Assembly (NCBI GenBank): GCA_964425745.1
Contig: CAYRNW010000006.1
Coordinates: 1,499 to 65,498 of the forward strand
Direction: 5' to 3'
DNA: 64,000 nt
DNA from: an uncultured Eubacteriales bacterium
GTDB taxonomy: Bacteria > Bacillota > JAAYKD01
Made by a program: the position numbers and the translations under genes. Under the pieces are notes generated by a model. It was not told the origin of the DNA and made no database searches. It worked only from the letters and a program-made list of their open reading frames with translations. This document shows, piece after piece, positions 1,138 through 28,420 of the stretch (within the stretch, counting starts at the first letter, position 1; each line of letters opens with the position of its first letter).

Positions 1138-1151
1138 TTGGCATCACCTCC

Positions 1152-5096: not shown

Positions 5097-5099
5097 GAC

Positions 5100-9320: not shown

Positions 9321-9339
9321 CGTTGAAAAAATATTTTGC

Positions 9340-10119: not shown

Positions 10120-10200
10120 TTTTTACACATTTTTGTGTAAATGCATTGATTTTTGACTTGTTTTGCAGTACAATAAAAATGTTATATTTTACCTTAGGGC
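10120..10200. promoter_or_regulatory. Divergent intergenic region with a palindromic operator-like site TTTACACA-ttttt-TGTGTAAA and TTGACT -35-like box
   Basis: 8-bp inverted repeat around 10125-10145. TTGACT at about 10157. Lies between divergently transcribed sigma-like gene and the Nbr1-FW gene. Confidence 0.3.
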
Positions 10201-11157: not shown

Positions 11158-11182
11158 TGCTGGATATTTGGAGGATATAAAC

Positions 11183-11383
11183 GTGAGCGATAAAAGCATT
11201 GAAAAATGGTCTACATTAAAAGAAGTACAAGAATATCTCGGTGTCGGCCGCGAGACCATTCTGCAATGGATCGCAAAAAGAAATATGCCCGCCTATAAGG
11301 TAGGCAGGCTCTGGAAATTCAAACTGTCCGAGGTTGACGACTGGATTCGTTCGGGCGGCGCTGACGACAGGAATGCAGAATAA
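11183..11383 (+). CDS. Excisionase/AlpA-like MerR-type HTH DNA-binding protein
   Basis: 66 aa with LKEVQEYLGVGRETILQWIAKRNMPAYKVGRLWKF. GGAGGA SD 7 nt before GTG 11183 (the ORF-track TTG at 11168 lies in the SD). Confidence 0.6.
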   Translation: MSDKSIEKWSTLKEVQEYLGVGRETILQWIAKRNMPAYKVGRLWKFKLSEVDDWIRSGGADDRNAE

Positions 11384-11478
11384 GTCCGTTTTATGGGACA
11401 GGCCAAAATTTAGAATTAGCGTGTGGCATTATAGCCAAAATCGCAAATATAAAAGCGAAAAGGATAGGGTGAAATACT

Positions 11479-13488
11479 ATGGACAATCAAGTGCACAATT
11501 CAATAGTTAGCTTTATATGGGGTATTGCAGACGACTGCCTCCGTGATATATATGTACGCGGCAAATACCGCGATGTTATTCTGCCAATGACGGTTATCCG
11601 CCGTCTTGACGCAATGCTTGAGGATACCAAGCAAGCGGTGCTGGATATGAAAAAAACATTGGATGCCGCCGGTATTACCAACCAATGGCCCGCGCTTTGC
11701 AACGCTGCGGGACAGGCATTCTGCAATGCTTCGCCATTCCGTCTGCGCGACCTCACCAGCCGCGCGAAGAAGCAGACTTTGAAGACCGATTTTGAGGCCT
11801 ATCTCGACGGTTTTTCGCCAAACGTGCAGGAAATCCTCGAAAAATTCAAGTTCCGCAATCAGATTGATACTATGATCGACGCCGACATTCTCGGCGCGGT
11901 TATTGAAAAGTTTATTTCTCCAACCATTAACTTGAGTCCGAAGCCGGTTTACAAGGACGATACCAAAGAGGAAATCCGCCTGCCTGCGCTGGATAACCAT
12001 GGCATGGGTACTGTCTTTGAGGAGCTTATCCGCAAGTTCAACGAGGAAAACAACGAGGAAGCCGGAGAACACTGGACTCCTCGTGATGTTGTCGAGCTTA
12101 TGGCCGACCTTGTTTTTGCGCCGATTGCCGACAAGATAATGGACGCCACCTATTCCTGTTATGATGGTGCTTGTGGTACCGGCGGCATGCTGACTGTTGC
12201 ACAGGAACGGCTGATGACGCTTGCAGAACAGTCCGGCAAACAAGTATCAATTCACCTTTTCGGGCAGGAGATCAACCCCGAAACTTACGCAATCGCAAAG
12301 GCGGATATGCTGCTGAAAGGCGACGGGGATCAAGCCGAGCATATCGGCTTTGGCTCCACGCTATCAAATGACCACAACGCAACCCGCCAATTTGACTTCA
12401 TGCTTTCCAATCCGCCTTACGGGAAGAGCTGGAAAACCGACGCCGAGAAGATGGGCGGTAAAAAAGATATACTGGATACAAGGTTTAACATATACCTCGA
12501 AAACGGCGAGCAGCTCGCCATGATTCCGCGCACAAGCGACGGCCAGCTCCTGTTTCTGCTGAACAATGCGGCAAAGATGAAAAAAGACACGCCGCTCGGC
12601 AGCCGTATTGCCGAGGTACATAACGGTTCCTCGCTCTTTACGGGCGATGCGGGGAGCGGTGAGAGCAATGCGCGCAGATATCTTATTGAAAGCGACCTTG
12701 TCGAGGCGATCATCGCCTTGCCGGAAAATATGTTTTACAACACAGGCATCGGTACATATATTTGGGTTTTGTCCAACAAAAAAGAAGACCGCCGCAAGGG
12801 GAAAATTCAATTGATCGATGCCACGGCCATGAAATCCCCGCTTCGCAAAAACATGGGTAAAAAGAACTGCGAATTTACGGAGGAAATCCGCGCGGAGATT
12901 CTGCGCATTTTCATGGAGATGGAAGAGAGCGAAGTAAGCCGCATCTTCAATAACGAGGAGTTTGGCTACTGGGCTATTACAGTGGAAAGGCCGCTTCGCT
13001 TGAGAGTATTCCCGGAAAGGCATATTCCTGATTCTGTTTTCAAGAATGCGGATGAACGCGCCGATTACGAACGGGCTATTAGTAGATTGCCGAAAAATAC
13101 TCCTTTGGATAATTGGGAGGCGTTTGCCAAAGCGGCAAAATTGAAGGCGGCGCTGCTTAAAAAGGTGCGCCCCTATATCACCGAAAAAGACCCGTCCGCG
13201 CAGCCGGTTGAGGGAGAGTCCGATACCGACCTTCGCGACACGGAAATTGTTCCGTTTGCCTATGACGGCGGCATCGAAGCCTTCATGAAAAACGAAGTGC
13301 TTCCGTATGCGCCAGACGCGTGGGTGGATGAGAAAAAAACACAGATTGGCTATGAGATCAGCTTTACGAAATATTTCTACAAGCCGGTTGAGCTGCGTTC
13401 TTTAAAGGATATTCTTTCTGACCTCAAAACTCTTGAAAAAGAGACGGACGGCATGATGGCGGAAATCATCGGGGGGCTTGAGGAATGA
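11479..13488 (+). CDS. hsdM: Type I restriction-modification system, DNA methyltransferase subunit M
   Basis: N6-adenine MTase motif LSNPPYG and HsdM N-terminal domain. GC-rich relative to surroundings. Confidence 0.95.
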   Translation: MDNQVHNSIVSFIWGIADDCLRDIYVRGKYRDVILPMTVIRRLDAMLEDTKQAVLDMKKTLDAAGITNQWPALCNAAGQAFCNASPFRLRDLTSRAKKQTLKTDFEAYLDGFSPNVQEILEKFKFRNQIDTMIDADILGAVIEKFISPTINLSPKPVYKDDTKEEIRLPALDNHGMGTVFEELIRKFNEENNEEAGEHWTPRDVVELMADLVFAPIADKIMDATYSCYDGACGTGGMLTVAQERLMTLAEQSGKQVSIHLFGQEINPETYAIAKADMLLKGDGDQAEHIGFGSTLSNDHNATRQFDFMLSNPPYGKSWKTDAEKMGGKKDILDTRFNIYLENGEQLAMIPRTSDGQLLFLLNNAAKMKKDTPLGSRIAEVHNGSSLFTGDAGSGESNARRYLIESDLVEAIIALPENMFYNTGIGTYIWVLSNKKEDRRKGKIQLIDATAMKSPLRKNMGKKNCEFTEEIRAEILRIFMEMEESEVSRIFNNEEFGYWAITVERPLRLRVFPERHIPDSVFKNADERADYERAISRLPKNTPLDNWEAFAKAAKLKAALLKKVRPYITEKDPSAQPVEGESDTDLRDTEIVPFAYDGGIEAFMKNEVLPYAPDAWVDEKKTQIGYEISFTKYFYKPVELRSLKDILSDLKTLEKETDGMMAEIIGGLEE

Positions 13489-14834
13489 GAGCATATAGTG
13501 AATATTGCCGTGTTGATGCTGAGTGGCTTGGCTCTCTCCCTTCACATTGGGATTGCAAAAAGATTGGAGCTTTGTTTTCACAACGAAAAGAAAAAGTCTC
13601 CGATAAAGACTTTGCACCACTTTCTGTTACGAAAAATGGTATTTTGCCACAACTATCAAATGCGGCAAAATCAAATGATGGAGACAACCGAAAACTTGTA
13701 CGCGCGGGAGATTTTGTAATTAACAGTCGCTCCGACCGAAAAGGTTCTTGTGGAGTGTCGTTTCTTGATGGCTCTGTTTCTCTCATAAACATTGTGCTGA
13801 CACCACGACAAGATTGGAATAGCAGGTATGTACATTATCTTCTTCGTAGTCATCTTTTTTCCGAAGAATACTATCATTACGGGAGAGGCATAGTTGCTGA
13901 TCTTTGGACAACAAGATACAGCGAAATGAAAAACATATATCTTCCCGTACCACCATGTGCCGAACAAGACCAGATTGTACGCTATTTGGATTGGCAGGTT
14001 TCAAAAATAAACAAGCTTATAAAAGCAAAGAAAAAGCAAATTACTTTACTTGATGATCTGAAGCGCTCGGTTGTGAACGATGCTATTACTCATGGCCTTA
14101 ATCCGAATGTAGAAATGAAGTCTAGTGGTGTTGTATGGCTTGGAGATATTCCTGCCCACTGGACAACCATAAAACTTAGACAAATACTAACACCTGTAAG
14201 TATTAAGAACCACCCAGAACTACCTCTTTTATCTGTTGTCCGTGAGAAAGGTGTGATTATTAGGGATGTTGAGGATAAAGACAGCAACCATAATTACATA
14301 CCAGATGACTTGAGTGGCTACAAAATGGTAAAAAAAGACCAATTTGCTATGAATAAAATGAAGGCATGGCAAGGGTCATATGGTATATCTAATTATACAG
14401 GTATTGTAAGTCCAGCATATTACATCTTCAACGTAGCTTTTGATAATCTTAAGTATTTCCATTATGCTATCAGAAGCAAAGTTTATGTAAATTTCTTTGC
14501 ACAGGCATCCGATGGTATTCGAGTAGGTCAGTGGGATTTATCTATTCCCAAAATGAAGGAAATTCCATTCATCGTTCCACCAGAGGATGAACAGAAAGCT
14601 ATTGTCGAGTATATACCTAAAGCTTGCGCTAAATATGATGCAGGAATAACGCGATTGACAGAGGAAGTTGCACTTTTGGAAGAATATAGAGCAAAGCTTA
14701 TTTCCGATGTTGTCACCGGTCAGATTGATGTTCGTGGCATTGAAATCCCGGAATATGAGTATGTAGAAGAATCCGATGAAGAGTCCGACGAGATGGACGG
14801 TGCGGACGAAGAAGCGGAAGAACAGGAGGAATGA
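13485..14834 (+). CDS. hsdS: Type I restriction-modification specificity subunit S (two target-recognition domains), unusual acidic C-terminal tail
   Basis: ATGA overlap with hsdM. Two TRD/conserved-repeat architecture. Tail EESDEESDEMDGADEEAEEQEE. Confidence 0.9.
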   Translation: MRAYSEYCRVDAEWLGSLPSHWDCKKIGALFSQRKEKVSDKDFAPLSVTKNGILPQLSNAAKSNDGDNRKLVRAGDFVINSRSDRKGSCGVSFLDGSVSLINIVLTPRQDWNSRYVHYLLRSHLFSEEYYHYGRGIVADLWTTRYSEMKNIYLPVPPCAEQDQIVRYLDWQVSKINKLIKAKKKQITLLDDLKRSVVNDAITHGLNPNVEMKSSGVVWLGDIPAHWTTIKLRQILTPVSIKNHPELPLLSVVREKGVIIRDVEDKDSNHNYIPDDLSGYKMVKKDQFAMNKMKAWQGSYGISNYTGIVSPAYYIFNVAFDNLKYFHYAIRSKVYVNFFAQASDGIRVGQWDLSIPKMKEIPFIVPPEDEQKAIVEYIPKACAKYDAGITRLTEEVALLEEYRAKLISDVVTGQIDVRGIEIPEYEYVEESDEESDEMDGADEEAEEQEE

Positions 14835-14837
14835 GTA

Positions 14838-17804
14838 ATGGCTTTTACCAACACAAAGGAAAGCGGTCTTGAGGCCTTAATTGTTGATTGGCTTGTTAAT
14901 CATAACGGCTACGAGCAGGGCACAAATACGGATTTTAACCGTGAATATGCGATTGATGAAATGCGCCTGTTTCGCTTCCTGCAGGACACGCAGCCGGACG
15001 CCATGGAAAAGCTGGGTGTATTTAAGGCTGACCTTAAAAAGAAGCAGTTTTTGAACCGACTGCAGGGCGAGCTTGCCAAGCGCGGCATTATTGACGTGCT
15101 GCGCAACGGTATCAAGATATACCCGGTTGACCTCATCATGTTCTATCTGACGCCGACGGAAAATAACGCCAAGGCCAGACTGATGCATGAGAAGAACATA
15201 TTCAGCGTTACCAGACAATTGCAGTATTCTATGGACGCAACGCGGCTGGCGCTGGATTTGTGCGTCTTTATCAACGGCTTGCCGGTTATCACCTTTGAAC
15301 TAAAGAACCAGCTGACAAAGCAGACGGTGGACGACGCAGTAGAGCAATATAAAAACGACCGCGACCCGCGCGAGCTGCTGTTCCAGTTCAAGCGCTGCAT
15401 GGTTCATTTTGCCGTGGACGATGCCCGCGTGAAATTTTGCACAAAACTGGACGGAAAAAGCAGCTGGTTCCTGCCTTTTGACAAAGGCTATAACGACGGA
15501 GCGGGCAACCCGCCTAACCACGATGGCATTATGACTGACTATTTGTGGAAGGATATCCTCTCAAAAAAGAAGCTCTGCCGTATAATTGAAAACTATGCTC
15601 AGGTGGTTGAAGAGATAGATCCGGAAACAAAGAAAAAATCCGTAAAACAGATATTCCCACGCTACCATCAGCTTGATGTGGTTGAAAGCCTTTTTGCCGA
15701 CGTAAAACGCAATGGCATCGGTAAACGCTATCTTATCCAGCACAGCGCGGGCAGCGGCAAGTCCAATTCCATCGCATGGTTGGCGCATCAGTTGATTGGG
15801 CTTGAAAAAGATGGCCATCCGATGCTCGATTCCGTTCTTGTAGTTACAGACCGCCGCATTCTGGATAAGCAGATCCGCGACACCATTAAGCAGTTTATGC
15901 AGGTACAGAACACAGTGGCATGGGCTGAACGTTCTGGGGATCTCCGTAAAGCTATACAGGATGGCAAACGAATCATAGTTACTACTATTGAGAAGTTTCC
16001 ATATATTGTTTCTGATATTGGTACTGAACATAAAGACAGGCGTTTTGCTGTTATTATTGATGAAGCCCATTCCGGACAAAGCGGACGAAACTCCGCGCAG
16101 ATGAACCTTGCTCTCTCTGGCCTTGCCTCAGACGATGAGATGGACAATGAAGATAAAATCAATGCGATGATGGAAGGCCGCAAGCTGCTGCAGAATGCCA
16201 GTTATTTTGCCTTTACTGCTACGCCGAAGAATAAGACGCTTGAGACATTCGGTATCCCATATCAAGATGGGGATAAAATTAAACATCGGCCGTTCCATGT
16301 ATATACTATGAAGCAGGCAATTCAGGAAGGCTTTATCCTTGATGTTCTTAAATATTACACACCGATCGACAGTTATTACCGACTGATGAAAACTGTCGAG
16401 GATGACCCGATGTTTGATAAAAAGCGTGCTCAAAAGAAGCTACGTTCGTTTGTCGAGAGTGATAGCTATACCATTTCGCAGAAAGCACAAATGATGGTTG
16501 ACCATTTCCACGAACAGGTTATTGCCAAAGGCAAAATCGGCGGACAAGCCCGTGCCATGGTGGTTACAGCCAGTATTCCGCGCTGCATTGAATACTATTA
16601 TGCGATTAACAAGTGCTTAGCTGCGCGCCACAGCCCATACAAGTCGATTATTGCATTCTCCGGGGAACATAAGTATCAAAACCAGGAACCTGCGCTGACT
16701 TCAGCGGCGATGAATGGTTTCCCGGATGCCTCAATTCCGAAGACATTCAAAAAAGACCCGTATCGCCTTCTGATTGTGGCGGATATGTTCCAGACCGGTT
16801 TTGACGAGCCGTTGCTCCATACGATGTATGTGGACAAGATGCTTTATGATATAAAGGCGGTGCAGACCCTTTCACGGCTCAACCGTGCTTGCCCTAAAAA
16901 ATACGATACTTTTGTATTGGACTTTGCGAACAAAACATCAATCATTGAAGAAGCGTTTTCACGCTACTACCGTACGACCATTCTATCCGGCGAGACCGAT
17001 CCCAATAAGCTGTATGACATTATTGCGCTTATGGAGGGATATCAGGTTTATTCTGCGGAACACGTTGAAAAGCTGGTTGATTTGTATTTGAGCGGAGCCG
17101 AGCGTGACAGGATCGACCCGATTCTGGACGCTTGCGCTGCGGTTTATAAGGAACTCCAAACAGACGATCAGATCAAGTTCAAGAGCGCTGCAAAATCCTT
17201 TGTGCGTACATATGGATTCCTTGGAGCCATTTTGCCATACGGCAATGCCGATTGGGAGAAGCTGTCTATCTTCTTGAATCTGCTGATTCCGAAGCTGCCC
17301 GCGCCGCGAGAAGACGATCTTTCACAGGGTATTCTTGATGCCATCGATTTGGATAGTTACCGCCTGGAAGCGCGTGAGGTGATGTCAATCAAGTTGGAGG
17401 ACGAGGACGCAGAGGTTGCCCCGGTTCCTACCGGTAAAATCGGACATATTGTCGACCCCGAGATGGATTTGCTTTCCTCTATACTTTCGGCTTTCAACGA
17501 TATGTTCGGGAACATTGACTGGAAGGACGCCGACAACGTCCGAAGACAGATTCTCGAAATACCTGCAATGGTATCCAAGGACAAGAGATATCAGAACGCC
17601 ATGAAGAACTCCGACAAACAGGAAGCGCGCACTGAGAGTGAGCGGGCGCTACAGCAGGTTATTTTCTCAATTATGTCCGATAATATGGAGCTTTTCAAAC
17701 AGTTCCAAGACAACCCATCGTTCAAGAAATGGCTCTCTGATATGGTATTTAACCTTACTTACAATCCGGATGGGAAACCGTATCAGATGCTAAAAAAAGA
17801 GTAG
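14838..17804 (+). CDS. hsdR: Type I restriction enzyme, R subunit (helicase/endonuclease)
   Basis: Walker A QHSAGSGKSNS. DEAH box VIIDEAHSGQ. About 990 aa, immediately after hsdS. Confidence 0.95.
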   Translation: MAFTNTKESGLEALIVDWLVNHNGYEQGTNTDFNREYAIDEMRLFRFLQDTQPDAMEKLGVFKADLKKKQFLNRLQGELAKRGIIDVLRNGIKIYPVDLIMFYLTPTENNAKARLMHEKNIFSVTRQLQYSMDATRLALDLCVFINGLPVITFELKNQLTKQTVDDAVEQYKNDRDPRELLFQFKRCMVHFAVDDARVKFCTKLDGKSSWFLPFDKGYNDGAGNPPNHDGIMTDYLWKDILSKKKLCRIIENYAQVVEEIDPETKKKSVKQIFPRYHQLDVVESLFADVKRNGIGKRYLIQHSAGSGKSNSIAWLAHQLIGLEKDGHPMLDSVLVVTDRRILDKQIRDTIKQFMQVQNTVAWAERSGDLRKAIQDGKRIIVTTIEKFPYIVSDIGTEHKDRRFAVIIDEAHSGQSGRNSAQMNLALSGLASDDEMDNEDKINAMMEGRKLLQNASYFAFTATPKNKTLETFGIPYQDGDKIKHRPFHVYTMKQAIQEGFILDVLKYYTPIDSYYRLMKTVEDDPMFDKKRAQKKLRSFVESDSYTISQKAQMMVDHFHEQVIAKGKIGGQARAMVVTASIPRCIEYYYAINKCLAARHSPYKSIIAFSGEHKYQNQEPALTSAAMNGFPDASIPKTFKKDPYRLLIVADMFQTGFDEPLLHTMYVDKMLYDIKAVQTLSRLNRACPKKYDTFVLDFANKTSIIEEAFSRYYRTTILSGETDPNKLYDIIALMEGYQVYSAEHVEKLVDLYLSGAERDRIDPILDACAAVYKELQTDDQIKFKSAAKSFVRTYGFLGAILPYGNADWEKLSIFLNLLIPKLPAPREDDLSQGILDAIDLDSYRLEAREVMSIKLEDEDAEVAPVPTGKIGHIVDPEMDLLSSILSAFNDMFGNIDWKDADNVRRQILEIPAMVSKDKRYQNAMKNSDKQEARTESERALQQVIFSIMSDNMELFKQFQDNPSFKKWLSDMVFNLTYNPDGKPYQMLKKE

Positions 17805-17826
17805 CGACTTGTACGGGAGGAAAAAC

Positions 17827-18753
17827 ATGAGTGGAGTGTTGGCTAAAACATTAAAAAAGAAAAGCACAGACGGCATTTTTGTTGAGGTTCATCATACCGA
17901 GAGCCTTGGCTTGTGCATGCCTGAACAACTGCGCCTTTTCCATTTGGCCCTGCGCAACAACAGGTTTTATTCCGGCGATTTAGAAACCATGCTGTATCGT
18001 AATATTGGTCGCTACGTCTTTTCCCGTGCAAAACTTGAAGATTTTAAGCTTGAAGACGACCTCGATTCCGTCACTGCACAAGCCTTGAGGATTATGCGCG
18101 AAAACGGAGCCGCAGATACAAAGGGCTGTGGCAACGAACTCGGCGAAATGCTTGTTTATACTTTCTTGGAGGACATGCTCGGTGCCCCAAAACTAATGAG
18201 TAGAGTGGAATTATCGACTGAATTATCACAGTTCGGCAGCGAATGTGAAAGCATTCATCTATTTACTCCGGGTTTAGAGCAGCGTTGCCAGATGGTGTTC
18301 GGCGCGTCCAATGTCGTCGGTGAAATTAAGGATGCTATTGACCGTTCATTTGAAACTATTCTCCGTATTGAAAAGCATGAAGCTCGCGAGATCAAAATGG
18401 TCGAGAAAACAATTCTTGACCGCGCATTTGACCCGGGTGAAATCGAACTTATCAAAGATATTATTTTGCCGTCTCCAGGAAAAACTCCAAGCTATAACAC
18501 TGCGTATGGCGTTTTCCTTGGATACTCTATCGGTCTGTCTTCCGAGGGACGCACATCAGAAGAATACGAGAACTTAGTAATGCAAAAAATGGCATACGAT
18601 ATAAAGCAGCACGCTAAGTACATAGCCGAGAAGATTCACGCGAACCACCTTGACTCACACTCGTTTTATTTTTACATCCTGCCCTTTGACGATGCAGAAG
18701 CCGAGAAAAAGGCCATTATGGAGAATGTAATGAAGGGGGATGTTATGTTATGA
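17827..18753 (+). CDS. hamA: Hachiman-like HamA (DUF1837-like) protein
   Basis: About 308 aa with no other recognisable domain. Its stop overlaps (ATGA) the start of a large DExH helicase, the canonical HamA-HamB arrangement. GGGAGG SD before ATG 17827. Confidence 0.55.
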   Translation: MSGVLAKTLKKKSTDGIFVEVHHTESLGLCMPEQLRLFHLALRNNRFYSGDLETMLYRNIGRYVFSRAKLEDFKLEDDLDSVTAQALRIMRENGAADTKGCGNELGEMLVYTFLEDMLGAPKLMSRVELSTELSQFGSECESIHLFTPGLEQRCQMVFGASNVVGEIKDAIDRSFETILRIEKHEAREIKMVEKTILDRAFDPGEIELIKDIILPSPGKTPSYNTAYGVFLGYSIGLSSEGRTSEEYENLVMQKMAYDIKQHAKYIAEKIHANHLDSHSFYFYILPFDDAEAEKKAIMENVMKGDVML

Positions 18754-21413
18754 GTGCTTCAGCAAAGATAAATCTTGGTGATGCCATCTTTAATGGTATT
18801 GAGGAGAATCCATTTCTGAATGAACTCTATGATAACATACTCTATAATTATGCGCTGAAAAAATTCGAACTGACATCCAGCAGGCAGTCCAGAGAGGTTG
18901 ATATTGCTTCAGCCCTTAGGTTTGCCGATTTGCTTTCTAAATCAACGTGTCCCCAAAATAAAGACAAACACAAAATGTGGGCGCAGGAAATAGTAGTACT
19001 CTTGCATGAGCTTTACCCGGAAAATGAAGACGTGAGTATGGTTGCCGGATCTGTCCTTTCATACACCGGGAATTATCAAGGACAAAAAATTATCAAGAGC
19101 AACTATCAAGCCCCTTCTGCACTTGAAAGAGTATTTACAGAATTTCAGAGTCATTATCTTACAATACCCGCTGAACCGGACTTGCGTTTTTTTGGCGCGC
19201 AGAAGAATGTATATGATCACTTGGACGACCCCTATTTCAGCTATTCTGGTCCGACTTCTATGGGTAAATCTTTTATTATGCGGATGTTCATGAAGGAGCA
19301 GGTCAAGCAAGGCGCAACTAAAAACTTTGCATTGATTGTTCCTACAAAAGCGTTGATAAATGAAAATAGAAGCCAAATTATTAATGATTTGAAAGAATAC
19401 CTGCAGCAGCGTAATTATCGTGTGATTACTGCTGCTGGCGATTTGGCTCTTGAGGGGCGACACAACTTTATTCTTGTGCTTACACCGGAAAGATTGTTGT
19501 ATCTTCTTATCAGCAAGCCGGATTTGCAGATCGATTATGTATTTATCGATGAAGCGCATAAACTATCCGGTAAAAACAGCAGAGGTCCTTTCTACTATAA
19601 AGTTGTTGATATGCTGATTAAGCGACAACATAAGCCGCATATTATTTTTGCATCACCTAATATTCCTAATCCTGAGGTGTATCTGAGGCTTCTTTCAGAA
19701 AAGACAAATGCTAATAATAGGTTGCGGTCGACATTTTCACCGGTTGCGCAAATCAAGTTTTTAATTGACCTAAATACCCATACTATCAGCGCATACAACG
19801 ATTACGCCGAGGAACTGATGCACCTTGCAACCATTCAGAAATCAGATGCTACGCTGATTGATTTTCTCAGAATGTTCGAAGTGGTTAATATAAAGCAAAT
19901 ACCGGAAAATCGCCAGCAGACTATTGTGTACTGTAATGGAAAAAGCAAAGCAATTGAATTGGCGCGTGAGTTTTCAAAATTTCTTCCAGAAAGCGGAGAT
20001 AAAGAGCTTGATGATTTATCACGGGATATCCGCAACGAGGTTCACGGGGAGTACTATTTAACAGAAGTAATAAAAAAGGGTGTTGCCTACCACATAGGGT
20101 ATTTACCTTCAGCTATTCGTATGCGAATCGAGGACATGTTCCGCAAGGGCAAGATAACCATCATGTTTTGTACAAGCACCCTTTTAGAAGGCGTTAACCT
20201 TCCTGCAGATAATCTATTCATCACCGATTTCAAGATAAATCGGTCAATCATGACGCCCGTTGACTTCAGAAATCTGATCGGCCGTGTTGGACGCATACGG
20301 TTCAACTTATATGGAAATGTGTTCTTTGTTGCTCAAGGCGACAAAATTACAGAGAAGGATTATGTTGAACTGTTGCAGGCTCCAATCCCGGATCAAAAGC
20401 TGTCAATTGAATCCGGAAAAACGGGCCTGCAGGAAGCCGAGAAAAAATACATAGTATCCAAGCTGCTTGCCGGTGATATTGAAATTGAAAAGCGTAATAC
20501 CAGCCAATCGGAAGAAGCACATACAATGATGCGGAAATTTGCGCTTATATTACTTCGTGATATTTTAGAAAACAGAAACAGCTTGGTAAGACGTGAATTT
20601 TCTGCTTTATTAACTACAGCGGATGAGAATAAAATTAGAGAGAATTTCCAAGAATCCGCTTCCCTGCTCGATGATGATATAAATATATCTGTGGACCAGG
20701 CACAAAACCTGTCCGCGGCTATTGAATTCGGTCTTAAGTACCCGGAACGTGTGGACGGGCATTTCGTTTATGATGATGTGCTTGCCTTCCTTGAGAAGCT
20801 GTGCAGAATTTTTAAATGGAAAAAGTATGAGTATACGTCTCTTGGAAAAGTTAGTGAAAATGGCCAGTTTGCATTGCTTCGCTGGTATGCAGTAATCCTT
20901 ATTCAGTGGATGGAAGGTACCGGTTTGAGCAGTATCATGAAAAAGGCCATTGAATACCGAGAGACACATCCTGATAATTTCTGGATCAACAAGTACCAGA
21001 AAACCCGATATAACGGTACAACAGAACATAAGAATATCGTCTTTGCAGATACCTTGGAGGTAATTGAGAATACGATCCTTTTTAGTATTTCCAATTATTT
21101 CCTTCGCTTTTCAAATGAGTATAAGCGTATACACCAACTCACGGAGTTTGAAAACAATTGGTACGAATTTGTTGAGTATGGCACGACAAACCCGCTAACA
21201 ATCCTGCTGCAACGAAACGGTTTTTCTCGCGAGGTTTCAACTTATATTAAGTCACATCAGGCTGATTTTGTCGTAACCATACCATCCGGTGAATTACGGC
21301 TAAGCCGAGCATTGCTATCATGCAGTAATATCAATGCCTGTAATGAGGCACGGGATATACAATATAATATGCCCGAATTATTTGTCGCAGATGGCTGCGA
21401 TATAGAAATATAG
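18750..21413 (+). CDS. hamB: Hachiman-like HamB DExH-box helicase
   Basis: Helicase motifs GPTSMGKSF (I), FIDEAHKL (II), and GRVGRIR (VI), with a long C-terminal extension. Translationally coupled to the upstream DUF1837-like gene. Confidence 0.65.
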   Translation: MSASAKINLGDAIFNGIEENPFLNELYDNILYNYALKKFELTSSRQSREVDIASALRFADLLSKSTCPQNKDKHKMWAQEIVVLLHELYPENEDVSMVAGSVLSYTGNYQGQKIIKSNYQAPSALERVFTEFQSHYLTIPAEPDLRFFGAQKNVYDHLDDPYFSYSGPTSMGKSFIMRMFMKEQVKQGATKNFALIVPTKALINENRSQIINDLKEYLQQRNYRVITAAGDLALEGRHNFILVLTPERLLYLLISKPDLQIDYVFIDEAHKLSGKNSRGPFYYKVVDMLIKRQHKPHIIFASPNIPNPEVYLRLLSEKTNANNRLRSTFSPVAQIKFLIDLNTHTISAYNDYAEELMHLATIQKSDATLIDFLRMFEVVNIKQIPENRQQTIVYCNGKSKAIELAREFSKFLPESGDKELDDLSRDIRNEVHGEYYLTEVIKKGVAYHIGYLPSAIRMRIEDMFRKGKITIMFCTSTLLEGVNLPADNLFITDFKINRSIMTPVDFRNLIGRVGRIRFNLYGNVFFVAQGDKITEKDYVELLQAPIPDQKLSIESGKTGLQEAEKKYIVSKLLAGDIEIEKRNTSQSEEAHTMMRKFALILLRDILENRNSLVRREFSALLTTADENKIRENFQESASLLDDDINISVDQAQNLSAAIEFGLKYPERVDGHFVYDDVLAFLEKLCRIFKWKKYEYTSLGKVSENGQFALLRWYAVILIQWMEGTGLSSIMKKAIEYRETHPDNFWINKYQKTRYNGTTEHKNIVFADTLEVIENTILFSISNYFLRFSNEYKRIHQLTEFENNWYEFVEYGTTNPLTILLQRNGFSREVSTYIKSHQADFVVTIPSGELRLSRALLSCSNINACNEARDIQYNMPELFVADGCDIEI

Positions 21414-21430
21414 CAGGAGGATAAACTAAA

Positions 21431-24013
21431 ATGGATAAAGCATATCAATGGGTGCCATTTTATGAGGCACTCGCCGATAAATTGCTTACATACAGCGATA
21501 AACGGGATGAACTCTTTGCTTTAATGAAAAAGCTTTCATCGGAGCAGCCGCTGATGAAATATCTCCACTTCGAGCGTGAAGACTGGTGGGAACCCCGCCA
21601 TCATCAAATCGATCCGTTTTCTGTGATTGGAGTTATGAATCGCGGAACAACAGATGCAAACCGTATTGTCTTAGCCAAGGTACTCGCAAACGCATTTGAC
21701 ATACAGATTCCTTCGCCTACGCAGTTTGCGGGTATACCTGTACTCAATAACATGAACTCATTTTTTAATGGAACAAATGAATTATGGGAGCTGTTTTGCC
21801 TTGCAATAAAATCCGCTGAAACCGGTGAGTTTTCAGACAAATTTAAAAAAGCATTCGATGACGCCATTGCAGTATCTGGAAATGGACTGGCTTATATTAC
21901 GATGGGCTTGTATTGGATTCGGCCACATGTTTTTATGCCTCTTGATGGCAATTCGCGTGCTTATATTTCTACACATTTCGGTGTATCTGCACCAAGCGGA
22001 AACTGTAGTGGTGAAGAATACGTAACTTTTTTGAATACACTCAAAACGAAAATCCATGAGCAGGCGCCTGACCTGACATTACCTGAAATTTCGTATACTG
22101 CTTGGACGAAGAAGGATGCCAATTCGCTCGACGGTACAAGCACAACTACCGCAGTCGTTGATGAGAAACGGCAGCGGGCGGCATTTATACAATGGTATAC
22201 GAATAATGTTGGTTCGTCTAATTCTGCTAATACCATCGCGGTTGCTATCGGTAAAGCACGGCTTAAAAGCGGACGAGCAGTGTTTGCTATTGCTGATTTT
22301 AATGAACTTGATTCTGCGATCAAGAGCAGCGGCCTTGAAGGGTATTTTCAAGCCAGCGGTGGCGATTACTCAAAGATGGATATAGTTTTTGACATTGATC
22401 CAACTACCCAACGTGATGACTTGAAAAGTGGAATCAAGCACTATCTCAGTTTTCTTAAAAGCATAGGAGAATTAAGTTCATCAAGCGGAACAATTGTCCC
22501 GCCGAATATAGCATCACGGCAGACTGGCGGGGCAAAAATGGCAAAAAACATAATTCTCTATGGTACTCCTGGAACAGGAAAAACCTATAGTACAGTGCAG
22601 TATGCTGTTGCCATTATTGAGGAGAAGTCGATCGCGGAGGTAAAATCTGAAGATTACGGAGAAGTATTCAATCGTTACTTAAAATATAAAGATGACGGAC
22701 TGGTCGCTTTTACCACATTTCACCAATCGTTTGGCTACGAAGAATTTATTGAGGGTATACGCCCGGTCGTGTCTTCGGAGGAAAAAGCAGAATCGGTACG
22801 CGAAATTGAATACGAAGTACATGATGGAATTTTCAAGGCATTTTGCGATAAAGCTGGAACACCTATTGGCGGCGGAACAAGTGTAGACTTAGGAATTGGT
22901 AAAAGCCCTACCGTCTGGAAGGTTTCACTTGAAGGTACAGGTGACAATCCTACAAGAGCCGAATGTATGGAGAATAATCATATCCGCATCGGATGGGACA
23001 GCTATGGCGAAACCATATCTGATGCTACAGATTACAGCAAGGATGGAGGCAGAACCGTTCTCAACGCATTTTACAACAGGATGCAAATCGGCGATATTGT
23101 TATGTCTTGTTATTCCAGCAAAACAATAGACGCGATTGGTGTTATTACTGGCGAACCAGAATGGCACGATGAGTATCAGAACTACAAACGGTTGCGTAAT
23201 GTGAAATGGCTTGTAAAGGGTATTAACGAAGATATCGTCGATTTCAATGCCGGAAAAGCTATGACGCTTTCATCTGTATACAAGTTATCAGTTTCAGTGT
23301 CAGATGCATTGCAAATACTTAGGAAAGTGAAGCCAAGCCTATTCACACAAAAGGTAAAAATTCCAAACCGTGTATTTATCATTGATGAGATCAATCGAGG
23401 GAATATCTCAAAAATATTTGGTGAATTAATTACCCTAATCGAGCCGTCAAAGCGCATAGGAGCAAGCGAACAGCTACGCGCTCTTTTGCCATACTCGGGC
23501 CAAAATTTTGGTGTGCCCGATAACGTCTACATCATTGGCACCATGAACACCGCCGACCGCTCTATCGCGATGATAGACACCGCGTTGCGCCGTAGATTTG
23601 AATTTATCGAGATGCAACCTGATTCTGCTACGCTTAAAGATGTTCTTGTTGACGGTATAGATATTGCTGAGATGCTCGACACCATCAACAAGCGTATAAC
23701 CGTATTGCTCGACCGTGAGCACACCATAGGACATTCCTATTTACTGCCGCTTAAAACAGACCCGACGATTGAAAATCTTGCGGCGATTTTTGAAAACAGA
23801 ATAATCCCGCTTTTGCAAGAGTACTTCTACGACGATTACGAGAAGATTCAGCTTGTATTGGGTGACAATCAGAAGCCGGATGATAGCACTCGCTTTATCG
23901 TGAAAAAGACAGATGCTGTTAAGCTGTTTGGAAACGCGGACGTTGATTTCCCGGAGTATTATGAGGTTAACAGCGAAGCTTTCATGAGGATTGATGCCTA
24001 TGCGTTCCTGTAA
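21431..24013 (+). CDS. mcrB: McrB-family GTPase (type IV restriction) with long N-terminal extension including a PUA/EVE-like modified-base reader domain
   Basis: AAA+/GTPase motifs NIILYGTPGTGKTY, VFIIDEINRGNISKIFGE and IIGTMNTADRSIAMIDTALRRRFEF. The upstream segment VWKVSL..IRIGW..FYNRMQIGDIVMSCYS..IDAIGVITGEP is EVE-like. Confidence 0.85.
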   Translation: MDKAYQWVPFYEALADKLLTYSDKRDELFALMKKLSSEQPLMKYLHFEREDWWEPRHHQIDPFSVIGVMNRGTTDANRIVLAKVLANAFDIQIPSPTQFAGIPVLNNMNSFFNGTNELWELFCLAIKSAETGEFSDKFKKAFDDAIAVSGNGLAYITMGLYWIRPHVFMPLDGNSRAYISTHFGVSAPSGNCSGEEYVTFLNTLKTKIHEQAPDLTLPEISYTAWTKKDANSLDGTSTTTAVVDEKRQRAAFIQWYTNNVGSSNSANTIAVAIGKARLKSGRAVFAIADFNELDSAIKSSGLEGYFQASGGDYSKMDIVFDIDPTTQRDDLKSGIKHYLSFLKSIGELSSSSGTIVPPNIASRQTGGAKMAKNIILYGTPGTGKTYSTVQYAVAIIEEKSIAEVKSEDYGEVFNRYLKYKDDGLVAFTTFHQSFGYEEFIEGIRPVVSSEEKAESVREIEYEVHDGIFKAFCDKAGTPIGGGTSVDLGIGKSPTVWKVSLEGTGDNPTRAECMENNHIRIGWDSYGETISDATDYSKDGGRTVLNAFYNRMQIGDIVMSCYSSKTIDAIGVITGEPEWHDEYQNYKRLRNVKWLVKGINEDIVDFNAGKAMTLSSVYKLSVSVSDALQILRKVKPSLFTQKVKIPNRVFIIDEINRGNISKIFGELITLIEPSKRIGASEQLRALLPYSGQNFGVPDNVYIIGTMNTADRSIAMIDTALRRRFEFIEMQPDSATLKDVLVDGIDIAEMLDTINKRITVLLDREHTIGHSYLLPLKTDPTIENLAAIFENRIIPLLQEYFYDDYEKIQLVLGDNQKPDDSTRFIVKKTDAVKLFGNADVDFPEYYEVNSEAFMRIDAYAFL

Positions 24014-25277
24014 TAAAACCTTCACTATAACAGAATACGGTGGGTTTACGCGCGGCATAGCGTCTTACGGTTATCAGGCATTGCCGGAAAAAACATTTGA
24101 TGCGCTTGAAGCTTTTATCCTCGCCAACAATACTGATACGGGAACCGAGGCAGTCGAGCTGCTGTCTCTTTCTGTTCGCCGAGGCATTGGCAAGATTATC
24201 ACCGCCAGAAATTACGTCGGGCTGATAACGATGGCTGACGGTACTGTCATAGAGATTCTCCCTAAAGTTATGGGCGGCGATATTACCGAGGAAGAGACGA
24301 AGCGAATTTTTCTCGAGATGCTAAAAACGCTAAAGGACGTGACATTTAAAGACTTCAATGTTTCAAATCTTCATGCTGACAACCTGAGCCTTCTCGATAT
24401 TTTTATAAAAATGTTTCTCGACGAGGTCACTATTCTAACAAAGCAAGGAATAAAAGCGGCATATACACCCGTCGAAGCAAATGAACGGTTCTATAAAGGG
24501 AAGCTGCTGGCTTCACAGAATATTAAATATAATCTGGTTAACAAGGAACGATTTTTTGTTCGCTACGACGATTTCAATATAAACAGACCGGAGAACCGTC
24601 TGATCAAGTCCACACTACGTTTCCTGCGCAATACTTCAAATGACGGGCGTAACCGACAGAACGCAACCCGATTAATAAATTTCTTTGATGGTGTGGAATA
24701 TTCCAAAAACTATGATTTGGACTTTTCAAAGTGTATTGTCGACCGCAGCATGAGCCACTACGACAAGGCTCTTTCGTGGTGTCGCGTTTTCTTGCGAGGA
24801 AATAGCTTCACCGCCTTTGCAGGAAGCGAGGTTGCTCTTGCTCTTCTTTTTCCAATGGAAAAGGTGTTCGAGAGTTTTGTTGCTGCGAAGTTTCGCAAGC
24901 ACATTGGTAGTGGTGTTACCTTGCGGACACAGGATGCCAGATACAGTCTGTTTGATAGTCCGGCCCGAGCTTTTTCCCTTCGTCCTGACATTGTGTTAGA
25001 ATTTGACGGCCGTACAGTAGTTCTGGATACCAAATGGAAGCTGCTCTCAGACAATGCCAGAAACAGCGGTATTTCACAAACTGATATGTACCAGATGTAT
25101 GCTTACGGCAAAAAGTATGAAGCAGACAAAATTGTCTTGCTGTATCCCTATTCCGATGCTGTGCGCAAAACTGATATCAGGTATGCCTCAGATGACAATG
25201 TAAAGGTCGATGTTACCTTCATTGACCTTAAGAATGCGGATAACAGTATTTCGAAACTATTAGGGGAGGTGTGCTAA
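24000..25277 (+). CDS. mcrC: McrC-family nuclease subunit (PD-(D/E)xK)
   Basis: RPDIVLEFDGRTVVLDTKWK catalytic motif. Overlaps the mcrB 3' end. Start chosen at the ATG 9 nt after GAGGA (alternatives 23991 and 23994). Confidence 0.8.
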   Translation: MRSCNKTFTITEYGGFTRGIASYGYQALPEKTFDALEAFILANNTDTGTEAVELLSLSVRRGIGKIITARNYVGLITMADGTVIEILPKVMGGDITEEETKRIFLEMLKTLKDVTFKDFNVSNLHADNLSLLDIFIKMFLDEVTILTKQGIKAAYTPVEANERFYKGKLLASQNIKYNLVNKERFFVRYDDFNINRPENRLIKSTLRFLRNTSNDGRNRQNATRLINFFDGVEYSKNYDLDFSKCIVDRSMSHYDKALSWCRVFLRGNSFTAFAGSEVALALLFPMEKVFESFVAAKFRKHIGSGVTLRTQDARYSLFDSPARAFSLRPDIVLEFDGRTVVLDTKWKLLSDNARNSGISQTDMYQMYAYGKKYEADKIVLLYPYSDAVRKTDIRYASDDNVKVDVTFIDLKNADNSISKLLGEVC

Positions 25278-26308
25278 TGCCATTTACCATCGTCCGTCAG
25301 GACATAACAAAAATGAAAGTTGACGCTATAGTCAACGCTGCCAACACCGACCTGCAAATGGGCGGTGGGGTTTGTGGAGCTATCTTCAAAGCGGCGGGAG
25401 CGGCACAGCTTCAAGCTGCCTGTGATAAACTCTCCCCGATTAAAACGGGTGAGGCGGTTATTACATCAGGATTCGACCTGCCCGCTAAGTTTGTTATTCA
25501 CGCGGCAGGCCCCGTTTATAGATATCAGAATACCGAGCAGAGTGAAAAACTACTACGTTCCGCATACATGGAGTCGCTCCGGCTTGCCATCGAAAACAAC
25601 TGTGAAAGTATTGCGTTCCCATTGATTTCAAGCGGGATTTACGGATACCCAAAAGACGAAGCCCTTCAAGTGGCTACTGCTGCAATTCAAGATTTTCTCA
25701 TCAACAACGATATTGATATAACACTTGTAGTGTTTGATAAATCGGCATTTACTGTAAGCCGCGAGCTGCTCGGTGAAGTCGAAAGCTACATAGATGAGCA
25801 TTACGTTGATATACACCAAATAAAGCGTCGGAAGCTGCTTGATGTAGAACGCCAAGCCATATCCGAAGCTGATGAGCGTGCTAGTATACTCAACGAGCCT
25901 ATTCTTGAAGATATGCTCGCTCCTATTGGCGCTCCTGCCCCGCTTGATGATTTAGTTGGCAATCTTGATGAGCCATTCTCTCAGATGCTCCTGCGTCTGA
26001 TTGATGCCAAAGGAATGACGGATGTTGAAGTATACAAACGTGCCAACCTTGACCGAAAATTATTCTCTAAGATCAGAAGCAACAAAGGATATATGCCAAG
26101 CAAGCGCACAGCTATTGCTCTTGCTGTAGCGCTGAAGTTATCTCTCGACGAAACCGACGACCTCTTGGAACGAGCGGGCTATGCACTATCTCACGCCGTC
26201 AAATTCGATGTTATTGTGGAGTACTTCATCGCAAACGGTAAGTACGATGTTTTTGCGATCAATGAAGTGCTGTTTGAATACGACCAGCCGCTGTTGGGAG
26301 GGTGCTGA
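25277..26308 (+). CDS. Macro-domain (ADP-ribose binding/processing) protein fused to C-terminal XRE-like HTH domain
   Basis: Macro signature AIVNAANTDLQMGGGVCGAIF and ISSGIYGYP. C-terminal MTDVEVYKRANLDRKLFSKIRSN..SKRTAIALAVALKLSLDETDDLLERAGYAL is HTH_XRE-like. TAATG overlap with the mcrC stop. Confidence 0.75.
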   Translation: MPFTIVRQDITKMKVDAIVNAANTDLQMGGGVCGAIFKAAGAAQLQAACDKLSPIKTGEAVITSGFDLPAKFVIHAAGPVYRYQNTEQSEKLLRSAYMESLRLAIENNCESIAFPLISSGIYGYPKDEALQVATAAIQDFLINNDIDITLVVFDKSAFTVSRELLGEVESYIDEHYVDIHQIKRRKLLDVERQAISEADERASILNEPILEDMLAPIGAPAPLDDLVGNLDEPFSQMLLRLIDAKGMTDVEVYKRANLDRKLFSKIRSNKGYMPSKRTAIALAVALKLSLDETDDLLERAGYALSHAVKFDVIVEYFIANGKYDVFAINEVLFEYDQPLLGGC

Positions 26309-26310
26309 TT

Positions 26311-26766
26311 ATGGATTATGTTTATGAAATAGATTCACTAATTCAAAAAGCTACATTAGCAATTGGTAAACCAATTTTTAAGGACAAGTATGAAATCGTT
26401 GATAGAGGTTTACCGCATATTCCACCTACTCGATTGCCTGATGGGAAGATGGCAATCTACATGTTTTTGCTCGGTGACGAATTTCTAAAAATCGGAAAAG
26501 CTAATTATAGAAGTAATGCAAGATTCTGCAGTCAACATTATGGTTTGAATGCACCATCAACACTTGCAAAATCACTGCTTTCGGATAGTGAGATGCGCAG
26601 CTTAAACATTACTTCTTCAAATATAAAAAATTGGATTAAAACGAATTGCCGACGAATCGACATAATTATTGATGCAGACTTAGGTGTTTTTGCTTTGGAA
26701 TTGATTGAGGGGATAATGCATTATAAATATGAACCCAGATATGAGGGTTTTGCATCTCAAAGGTAA
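26311..26766 (+). CDS. Small GIY-YIG superfamily (T5orf172/MUG113-like) protein
   Basis: AIYMF-(10)-LKIGKA-NYRSNARF..QHYG resembles GIY..YIG..R of the T5orf172 domain. GGGAGGG SD 8 nt before ATG 26311. Begins 3 nt after the macro-HTH stop. Confidence 0.5.
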   Translation: MDYVYEIDSLIQKATLAIGKPIFKDKYEIVDRGLPHIPPTRLPDGKMAIYMFLLGDEFLKIGKANYRSNARFCSQHYGLNAPSTLAKSLLSDSEMRSLNITSSNIKNWIKTNCRRIDIIIDADLGVFALELIEGIMHYKYEPRYEGFASQR

Positions 26767-26769
26767 TTT

Positions 26770-26786
26770 GTCGCTTCTGAAGCGAC
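26770..26786 (+). promoter_or_regulatory. Perfect hairpin GTCGCTTC-t-GAAGCGAC between GIY-YIG gene and vWA gene (weak terminator/processing site, no U-tract)
   Basis: 8-bp inverted repeat read directly. No T-run follows. Confidence 0.3.
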
Positions 26787-26845
26787 CGCCGGTCTCAAGT
26801 AAAGTAGTATTCTAAGATTACAATAAATCTTAGGAGGCTACCAAA

Positions 26846-27499
26846 ATGAAAAAGGGATTAACTGAACTGGTATTCATACTCGACAAAAGTGGCTCAATGA
26901 GCGGACTGGAAGCTGACACTATTGGTGGTTACAATTCAATGCTCGCAAAGCAGAAGGCAGTAGATGGTGAGTGCTACATTACAACGGTGTTGTTTGATAA
27001 CAACTATGAGCTACTCCATGACCGTATTGACATTAAAGCAGTCAGCCCGATTACTGACAAAGAATATCAGGTTGGCGGATCGACAGCACTTCTTGATGCA
27101 ATCGGCAGAACGATTCACAAAATTGGTAACGCTCAAAAGCACACTGCCGAAGATTACCGCGCCGAAAAGGTAATGTTTGTAATTATCACAGATGGCGAGG
27201 AAAACTCTAGTCGTGAATATACTGCCGAAAAGATCAAAGCACAGATTGAGCGGCAAAAAGAAAAGTATGGTTGGGAGTTTATCTTCCTTGGGGCTAATAT
27301 CGATGCGGTTCAGACCGCCGGGAGGTATGGAATTGCTCCTGACAGGGCAATTGACTATCTAGCTGATAGCGAAGGTACGGAACTGAACTTTAAGGTAATG
27401 GCAAGTGCTGTGGCGACATTTCGCGAGTCGGGAACGGTTGACGAGACTTGCTTTGAGGAAATCCGCAAGGATGTGAAGCGTCGAGGAGGTCGTAAATAA
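26846..27499 (+). CDS. von Willebrand factor type A (vWA) domain protein
   Basis: MIDAS motif VFILDKSGSMSG at the N-terminus. 217 aa. TAGGAGG SD. Confidence 0.8.
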   Translation: MKKGLTELVFILDKSGSMSGLEADTIGGYNSMLAKQKAVDGECYITTVLFDNNYELLHDRIDIKAVSPITDKEYQVGGSTALLDAIGRTIHKIGNAQKHTAEDYRAEKVMFVIITDGEENSSREYTAEKIKAQIERQKEKYGWEFIFLGANIDAVQTAGRYGIAPDRAIDYLADSEGTELNFKVMASAVATFRESGTVDETCFEEIRKDVKRRGGRK

Positions 27500-28350: not shown

Positions 28351-28420
28351 AATTATGGGAGTGAAATAGGGAGCAATTTATAGCGATTTTCTTTGACGTT
28401 TAAGAGCTAAAACAATAATG

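Follow-up and report, generated by a model that had tools for sequence, protein, structure and literature searches.

What sort of genetic unit is formed by a tightly packed run of defence genes that all point the same way? We addressed this question in a 64,000-nt stretch (hereafter the window) of contig CAYRNW010000006.1, assembly GCA_964425745.1, from an uncultured Eubacteriales bacterium, in which an original prediction had described nine genes, from hsdM to a GIY-YIG gene (11479-26766), as several systems fused into one transcription unit by serial insertion into an operon. Domain and family calls were obtained by comparison with Pfam, PADLOC, NCBIfam, PHROG and the PDB; related loci were collected from IMG/VR viral loci, from species-level genomes and from collection contigs labelled L002 to L101. 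The train is the attachment-site-proximal accessory ('moron') arm of an integrated temperate phage, here called prophage A, and not a chromosomal operon. More precisely, we consider it probable (about 0.8) that the region 10312-28350 is the arm of a Heliusvirales-like prophage, stacking four layers of nucleic-acid-directed immunity for the lysogen.

The place of the train in the genome was read from the end of the conserved block. Contigs encoding an identical HamB, a protein recorded in 130 blocks of the collection, from metagenomes of digesters, gut and food, share with the window the DNA from 9872 to about 28570 and then diverge. We placed the phage/host junction at 28562-28565, within the codons (HVETV) that close a TRAM/tRNA-U5 RNA methyltransferase gene. 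In an empty-site contig (L099) the genes pcrA, ligA, murB and the TRAM/tRNA-U5 methyltransferase gene are joined directly to the GGDEF gene found at 28874 of the window; similarity to the window begins at 28562, and the whole block is missing from this contig together with the phage genes. The same HVETV codons form the junction in three further host backgrounds (L003, L004 and L010), and the site has other occupants (L098, L100 and L101) with different terminal cargo, which in L098 and L100 is made up of a T5orf172 protein, McrC and an McrB that bears an Mrr_N domain. Because the block ends at a phage/host junction that is seen in the empty site and in other hosts, we read the train as an arm of prophage A that carries cargo. 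This arm points away from the operon of early replication genes and stops about 215 nt short of the phage end. Within this last interval lie three direct repeats (Table 1), conserved in L003, L004 and L010, which may be bound by a protein with a role in recombination or regulation.

An ordinary chromosomal defence island with phage neighbours by coincidence would explain one relative well: in a chromosomal island of L002 (GCA_900198705.1, FZPS01000029.1) a 9.95-kb fragment, 99.2% identical to 15513-25463 and made up of a shortened hsdR, then hamAB and mcrBC, and 186 nt from the start of the macro gene, has type I CRISPR-Cas genes on one side and DISARM-like genes (DrmE_C) on the other. We regard this explanation as very improbable for the window, given that the empty site lacks the whole block and the phage genes together and that in each of four host backgrounds the block stops site-specifically at the same RNA methyltransferase codons. 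Furthermore, a scan of IMG/VR with HsdR returned 26 loci (77-88% identity), and phage PolA and/or DUF2800 genes lie immediately upstream, on the opposite strand, in 20 of them.

With regard to the identity of this phage, the gene order of prophage A matches that of phage NatCom_9287 (Candidatus Heliusvirales), including a 16-kb divergent arm with methyltransferases and a restriction enzyme. A second Heliusvirales genome, PV036460.1, has in the equivalent arm a HamB homologue of 56% identity that is annotated as hypothetical, as are most arm genes of both genomes. A near-identity DNA search against phages returned only about 72% identity over one helicase gene, and when the train was compared in the same way with genomes and plasmids of E. 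coli, nothing matched. The nearest named relatives were Clostridia metagenome-assembled genomes (MAGs), Merdimonas, Blautia and Acetanaerobacterium.

The train itself was longer than had been proposed. The nine co-directional genes and their domain calls were borne out by the open reading frame (ORF) list, Pfam and PADLOC, whereas their extent had to be revised: two more genes precede them and two more follow, so that the train runs over 13 genes (10312-28350), from an Ig-domain gene to an ADP-ribosylglycohydrolase gene. The eight junctions first described (ATGA overlap, 3 nt, 22 nt, ATGA overlap, 17 nt, 14-nt overlap, TAATG and 2 nt) were all exact. Across the 13 genes the gaps are 26, 95, -4, 3, 22, -4, 17, -14, -1, 2, 79 and -1 nt, the third to the tenth being those between the nine genes and 95 nt the largest. 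Such packing by itself is unremarkable in this window, where the late operon of a second prophage, prophage B, is packed as tightly as the train; the non-random part is that the arrangement is conserved across relatives. The GC content is indeed heterogeneous, yet the proposed value above 50% for hsdMSR did not hold, as only hsdM reaches about 50% (hsdM 49.9%, hsdS 39.6%, hsdR 46.9%, hamB 40.4%, mcrB 43.0%, the 151-aa GIY-YIG gene 34.8%). The GC content at third codon positions ranges from 28 to 59% in the train.

The two genes added at the upstream end are shared with relatives. The Ig-domain gene has counterparts (33-63% identity) at the same place in L011, L013 and L017 as well as in 17 IMG/VR loci. 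The 66-aa helix-turn-helix (HTH) protein that follows it is 76-96% identical in relatives; it scored 67.6 bits with the NCBIfam MAD1 model, under the cutoff of 80, and is a candidate arm regulator or phage excisionase.

Three of the four putative layers are recognisable as known systems. An HsdM with the NPPY motif, an HsdS specificity subunit encoded beside it and an HsdR that combines a nuclease with a superfamily 2 (SF2) translocase make up a Type I restriction-modification (R-M) system. Next to it, a DUF1837 HamA and an SF2 helicase HamB, encoded with a 4-nt overlap, form a Hachiman system of type I; candidate D...ExK strings are present in HamA, as seen without alignment to characterised HamA. 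Among PDB entries HamB matched 9wh1_B with an E value of 6.5e-75, and the solved ECOR31 HamB (8vx9_B) matched low, at 3e-13. The third system is of the McrBC type, with AAA+ GTPase motifs in McrB and a PD-(D/E)xK nuclease, McrC. McrB matched the McrB of T. gammatolerans (6ut3, E 8.6e-57) in 3 stretches. An insert of about 200 aa (DUF8426) splits its AAA+ GTPase domain, separating Walker A (residue 378) from Walker B (DEIN, residue 652), and its N-terminal region is long (DUF8425). This protein is not the equivalent of E. coli McrB, whose N-terminal domain reads 5mC: only its C-terminal part matched the NCBIfam McrB equivalog model, at 127 bits against a cutoff of 637.

Type I R-M attacks unmodified DNA, and McrBC and GmrSD attack modified DNA. 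The four layers would shield the lysogen, and hence the prophage, from other phages. The first, Type I R-M, would cut unmethylated foreign DNA; in the second, the HamB helicase would sense damaged DNA and free the HamA nuclease, as an abortive response; the third, the McrBC-type modification-dependent enzyme, would cover phages that evade R-M through DNA modification; in the fourth, the macro-HTH, GIY-YIG, vWA and ADP-ribosylglycohydrolase (ARG) proteins would sense and reverse ADP-ribosylation, with a nuclease effector. We infer that the four layers would act independently and complement each other, with the small HTH protein as a putative regulator of the arm. For Hachiman, a DNA damage response with HamA-mediated DNA degradation has been described (PMC12278908).

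The original prediction had suggested comparing the presence and absence of modules among related genomes, and this comparison showed modules exchanged at gene boundaries. In L003 and L009 hsdS alone is exchanged, with breakpoints at 13488 and 14847. In L008 the whole of hsdMSR is exchanged and identity resumes at 17828, the second base of the hamA start codon. Behind hamB, relatives have either McrBC or GmrSD, and the block with the macro, GIY-YIG, vWA and ARG genes is present or absent among them. Exchange of hsdS, of hsdMSR, of the type IV slot and of the distal block thus supports modular assembly, in line with the proposed serial insertion; no integron-like or other shared recombination motifs were seen at the module junctions.

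The proximal part of the arm is more constant: its gene order from the Ig gene to hamAB, with a type IV restriction enzyme (McrBC or GmrSD) next, is repeated in dozens of related phage contigs. Three species-level genomes proved, in a scan with HamB, to have the order Ig gene, HTH gene, hsdMSR, hamAB. One is a Clostridia MAG (HamB 90% identical), with McrBC next; in the other two, of Merdimonas and Blautia (HamB about 62% and HsdR 87% identical), the gene of a GmrSD-family type IV enzyme takes this place and overlaps the stop codon of hamB. Among the 26 IMG/VR loci, 17 carry the Ig and HTH genes with hsdMSR beside PolA/DUF2800, and 15 have hamA directly 3' of hsdR. Where these loci extend beyond hamB, the next gene is of the GmrSD family in nine, McrBC in one and an AAA_13 ATPase in one. 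The hsdR-hamA spacer measures 15-31 nt in 12 of the 13 junction types and contains little beyond a ribosome-binding site, the two ham genes overlap in nearly all 13, and HamA identity ranges over these types from 45 to 92%; even where HamB identity has fallen to 55-62%, Type I R-M and Hachiman are still linked by a junction of 15-31 nt. Judged by these comparisons, the R-M and Hachiman core is an old conserved feature of the phage lineage and not a recent insertion. In IMG/VR loci that are devoid of Hachiman, hsdR is followed by a short prokaryotic Argonaute (pAgo) with SIR2, by DUF4357 proteins or by GmrSD; for instance, at positions 13056-16067 of L060 (IMG/VR 3300001688_000658) a Piwi-domain protein (short pAgo) and then a SIR2_2 protein come right after hsdR in the place of Hachiman.

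The function of the distal four genes, which would make up the fourth layer, is less evident. The macro protein has its best PDB matches among MacroD-type proteins (YmdB, MacroD2). Its residues 29-37 read GGGVCGAIF where MacroD2, YmdB and DR_2288 have GGGVDGxIH, and GGGVCGAIF is kept in 12 of 12 relatives examined. Since the Asp-to-Cys and His-to-Phe changes are fixed in the macro-HTH family down to 57% identity, the catalytic status of the domain is uncertain. The next protein, of 151 aa, had no match in the profile libraries searched, and its assignment to GIY-YIG was upheld by structure prediction: the best structural matches of the model (46-sequence alignment, predicted local distance difference test score, pLDDT, 93.6) are all GIY-YIG nucleases, and Tyr50, Gly62, Arg71 and Glu133 are invariant, in keeping with this superfamily. 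Its remote homologues have no consistent partner gene, one lying beside a TIR_2 protein and one alone among housekeeping genes. On a 149-kb soil-type contig (L038, 5463-7576), a distant homologue of about 45% identity is flanked by a further 151-aa ORF and by a TIR_2-domain protein. Across IMG/VR the gene order is conserved: macro-HTH, an optional variable gene, vWA and then usually ARG, with GIY-YIG filling the variable slot.

Between the GIY-YIG and vWA genes there is a 79-nt leader (26767-26845), at the start of which the original prediction had placed the first convincing terminator (26770). A hairpin is present there, kept right after the stop of whichever gene precedes vWA in 8 distinct relatives. 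It has no U-tract and was missed by both the consensus and the energy-based scans; as it also lies inside a conserved module, it is no end mark of the train. RNAalifold found no compensatory pair changes in it, so that an RNA structure and a DNA palindrome are indistinguishable at 26770-26786. A second hairpin, pairing the Shine-Dalgarno (SD) sequence of vWA, is predicted in all 8 distinct relatives with differing partner sequences, which suggests a translational gating of vWA/ARG, separate from the rest of the arm.

Taken together, the distal four genes most resemble, in gene content, the ARG-centric anti-ADP-ribosylation conflict systems predicted by Iyer, Burroughs, Anantharaman and Aravind in 2022 (PMC9503650, section 3.8). 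As in those systems the ARG is not coupled to an ADP-ribosyltransferase (ART) or sirtuin: no ART or SIR2 domain was found in 10312-30696, and no ART family match among the neighbouring genes in the Pfam or PADLOC scans. A DarTG assignment for the macro gene was rejected on the same ground (no DarT-type ART family match nearby) and on its MacroD-type best PDB matches. Nor does the distal module contain a phosphatase, a HAD hydrolase (30037-30696) lying outside the prophage. The sensor is a Macro domain and not a Nudix or WYL domain fused to an HTH, hence functionally analogous at best. One possibility is that macro-HTH, variable effector, vWA and ARG constitute a new, ADP-ribose-sensing variant of the predicted ARG-centric systems.

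The same genes might instead serve the phage in counter-defence or regulation, stripping ADP-ribose marks or degrading ADP-ribose-derived signals of host defences (DarT-like or SIR2/TIR-type), with no role in protecting the host. The strong matches of vWA and ARG to PHROG 7371 and 6572 would be expected of such genes, as would the recurrence of the trio in many viral contigs, often beside integrases or recombinases and not beside defence genes; phage macro, NADAR and ARG enzymes are, moreover, known or proposed as counter-defences (PMC11825919; PMC9503650). We find this unlikely, considering that in L071, in L035/L036 and in the window alike the module comes straight after genes of the McrBC type, within an arm on the lysogeny side, and that a variable nuclease-like slot with a sensor-HTH protein fits the conflict-system template of PMC9503650.

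Some observations nonetheless count against an arm of four immune layers in a Heliusvirales-like phage. Ca. Heliusvirales is defined by a marker-gene set and TerL phylogeny (PMC11283538); the structural genes of prophage A fall outside the window, and we call it Heliusvirales-like from synteny and 71-74% DNA identity over one helicase gene, not from marker-gene phylogeny. The DNA-reading domain of McrB is of an uncharacterised type, the C-terminal HTH_3 of the macro protein scores 18 bits, below the Pfam cutoff of 23, and the vWA-like protein scores 21.2 bits with Pfam VWA, below the cutoff of 23.8.

As to transcription, the original prediction had stated that no terminator-like hairpins occur between the nine genes, and neither the consensus nor the energy-based scans found any in these junctions. 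The scans likewise found no canonical terminator after the last gene, at the true arm end (28351-28565). Co-transcription of the whole train is plausible, since the junctions are short and conserved, no gap exceeds 95 nt and a promoter candidate lies at 10146-10174, in the divergent control region. Whether the arm would be transcribed mainly from this promoter-like site as one long message in lysogeny is, in our judgement, evenly balanced. Several points argue for caution. The absence of terminators says little, because terminator-like matches (22, versus 18.2 ± 4.4 in shuffled controls) and promoter-like matches (44, versus 37.3 ± 6.2) show no excess. A promoter-like site matching at 9 of 12 positions lies inside hsdR (17737-17765), 62 nt before hamA, and close relatives have it too; two conserved hairpins lie in the 79 nt that precede vWA; and in L002 a truncated hsdR is retained with hamAB and mcrBC although the upstream promoter is missing, so that hamAB/mcrBC can persist under other transcription signals.

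The opposite arrangement, that the modules are merely neighbours in a compact island of independent units, each with its own promoter in the 3' end of the preceding gene, is a tentative reading that we nevertheless take seriously. The site inside hsdR would be such a promoter, the gap before vWA contains a TACAAT sequence besides its conserved structures, hamAB-mcrBC persists in both L002 and L008 with different or truncated upstream genes, and modules are exchanged whole. It is more difficult to reconcile with the SD-only junctions of 15-31 nt, kept in 12 of 13 types at 45-92% HamA identity. In fact, the site inside hsdR is missing from most diverged lineages and coincides with the conserved peptide SDMVFNLTYNP, and promoter-like matches are no commoner than in shuffled sequence.

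The retention of the 15-31 nt hsdR-hamA gap while HamA diverged to 45% identity led us to consider also a mechanistic linkage of R-M, Hachiman and the type IV enzyme, expressed from one message, in place of mere co-carriage. Restriction by HsdR or McrBC/GmrSD would make DNA ends and damage that license HamAB, and the phage family would carry a circuit of the kind 'restrict, then escalate to abortive DNA clearance'. We hold this to be quite improbable, and the layers are treated here as independent.

Other signals were noted around the control region of the arm. Two strong terminator-like hairpins with T-runs lie on the minus strand, inside the Ig-domain and HTH genes (11016-11041 and 11287-11309), and might halt antisense transcription into the control region. 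An imperfect palindrome (TGTCCTTTCCGCC...GGCAAGGACA) at 9869-9912 overlaps the ribosome-binding site of the first early gene; similarity with L003, L004 and L009, whose first early gene differs, begins at 9872, in this palindrome. A search of 9500-31000 against Rfam (E <= 1) returned only a sub-threshold S15-leader match on the opposite strand.

Table 1. Coordinates of the features in the window
Feature	Position	Strand	Details
Phage replication module	1-9981	-	sigma-like first gene, DUF2800 nuclease, Enc34-type single-stranded DNA-binding protein, family A DNA polymerase, primase, SNF2 helicase
sigma-A-like promoter candidate TTGATT-17-TACAAT	10146-10174	+	9/12 match; in the 443-nt divergent control region between early operon and arm
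Ig-domain gene	10312-11157	+	281 aa; C-terminal N_BRCA1_IG (NBR1-type Ig-like), Pfam PF16158 E 5e-11; first gene of the arm
HTH_17/excisionase-family gene	11183-11383	+	66 aa; TIGR01764 E 6.5e-16; PHROG 66
hsdM	11479-13488	+	669 aa; Pfam N6_Mtase PF02384 E 4e-53, HsdM_N PF12161; PADLOC MTase_I 831 bits; NPPY at residue 311
hsdS	13485-14834	+	449 aa; PADLOC Specificity_I full length, E 1e-147; Pfam Methylase_S; GC 39.6%
hsdR	14838-17804	+	988 aa; Pfam HSDR_N, SWI2_SNF2, ResIII, T1R_D3-like; GSGKS at 305, DEAH at 408
hamA (DUF1837)	17827-18753	+	Hachiman effector nuclease; Pfam HamA PF08878 E 5e-36; PADLOC HamA1 E 1e-123
hamB	18750-21413	+	Hachiman SF2 helicase; PADLOC HamB1 1200 bits; GPTSMGKS and DEAH
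mcrB-like GTPase	21431-24013	+	860 aa; Pfam AAA_5; precomputed DUF8425, DUF8426, McrB_lid; GTPGTGKT, DEIN, NTAD
mcrC	24000-25277	+	nuclease subunit, PD...D-T-K motif; Pfam McrBC PF10117 309 bits
MacroD-type macro domain with C-terminal XRE-like HTH	25277-26308	+	343 aa; Pfam Macro E 6e-42; PDB MacroD2, YmdB, DR_2288
Stand-alone GIY-YIG-fold protein	26311-26766	+	151 aa; predicted nuclease effector; variable slot between macro-HTH and vWA genes
Hairpin/palindrome GTCGCT-N5-AGCGAC	26770-26786	+	6-7 bp; no U-tract; directly 3' of the upstream stop codon
Predicted hairpin pairing the vWA Shine-Dalgarno	26804-26841	+	RNAfold
vWA-like protein	26846-27499	+	217 aa; metal-ion-dependent adhesion site (MIDAS) motif DKSGS; PHROG 7371 E 2e-57
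ADP-ribosylglycohydrolase (ARG/ARH family)	27499-28350	+	283 aa; PF03747 E 1e-34; PHROG 6572 E 6e-54; last gene of the arm
Three direct repeats TTGACnTnTTyCCGCGAAC (19 bp)	28421-28513	+	3 matches versus 0.02 expected; last 150 bp of the prophage
Prophage/host junction CCAT/GTTGAGACGG	28561-28574	+	last codons (HVETV) of the TRAM/tRNA-U5 RNA methyltransferase gene
Prophage B genes	35361-64000		two serine recombinases, lysis, tail and head genes, TerL, ParB-methyltransferase, S-adenosylmethionine (SAM) synthetase
Noted stretches of prophage B	55217-56930, 58771-60157, 62737-63930		opposite-strand inserts, SAM synthetase/ParB-methyltransferase

The rest of the window belongs to the host and to the second prophage. 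Prophages A (1 to about 28565) and B are related and have the same orientation, with about 6.8 kb of host DNA between them, of lower GC content (34-40%) and with GGDEF, HAD, UbiB, DegV, TetR and Hsp20 genes. This host segment appears as short contigs in several samples, presumably owing to the flanking phages. Both ends of the window carry phage modules, and we considered whether it could be one circularly permuted phage genome; this was ruled out, as there is no self-overlap and a second replication module lies beyond 64000. Precisely, a contig that matches 51503-64000 at 100% runs on into a replication module 80-84% identical to the module at 1-6344, and on this ground the right-hand element is a separate prophage B. 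In prophage B the packaging/head region contains opposite-strand inserts (a MarR gene with an MFS transporter gene, and a 283-aa gene with a flavin reductase gene), and the SAM synthetase gene adjoins that of the ParB-methyltransferase. A scan of the window for tRNAs found none.

Each system of the arm belongs to a known family, and a prophage defence hotspot is a known type of island. In the hotspots of P2/P4-type prophages and satellites, a fixed spot in a temperate-phage genome carries interchangeable anti-phage cargo. The arm is like them in adjoining the attachment site, outside the lytic operons, with cargo that differs among relatives; it is unlike them in being found in Heliusvirales-like phages of Clostridia, between different flanking genes, and in keeping a Type I R-M and Hachiman core while only the distal slots vary, being exchangeable among McrBC, GmrSD, pAgo-SIR2 or an AAA_13 ATPase. 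The 'immigration control region' of E. coli K-12 (hsdRMS, mcrBC and mrr) is chromosomal and is not a tight co-directional train. The two share Type I R-M beside McrBC, with complementary coverage of unmodified and modified DNA, whereas the arm has in addition Hachiman and an ADP-ribose module, and an McrB with a different N-terminal region. In lambda cI-rexAB, defence genes are co-transcribed with lysogeny genes; the defence genes of the arm similarly diverge from the lytic early operon, on the lysogeny side, but no repressor was found in the arm and its co-transcription is only inferred.

Compared with Hachiman type I (HamAB, ECOR31), the arm has the same DUF1837 HamA and SF2 HamB in overlapping genes. 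The canonical Hachiman is a stand-alone two-gene system, whereas here hamA begins 15-31 nt past hsdR across a phage family, which makes the arm a natural setting for asking whether restriction systems and Hachiman cooperate. The distal module is like the ARG-centric systems in its ARG without an ART partner, a putative vWA protein, an extra Macro domain, a putative sensor-HTH protein and a variable nuclease slot, and in one relative (L072) a WYL protein stands beside a second vWA gene. It departs from them in its sensor, a Macro domain in place of Nudix or WYL, in having no phosphatase, in a GIY-YIG nuclease in place of a restriction-endonuclease fold, and in its location on phages of Bacillota, where those systems were described in Actinobacteria, Planctomycetes and Proteobacteria. 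The macro-HTH, vWA and ARG module is therewith a concrete candidate for a class so far purely predicted.

Against this background, what is modestly new is the conserved architecture of R-M, Hachiman and a type IV enzyme in Heliusvirales-like phages and, to the same modest degree, the integration site and the module in which macro-HTH, vWA and ARG accompany a variable slot. The arm can serve as an anchor for mining more defence cargo in these phages. A widespread temperate phage lineage of anaerobic Bacillota has a structured defence arm, by which current concepts are extended, unchanged, to a new phage group.

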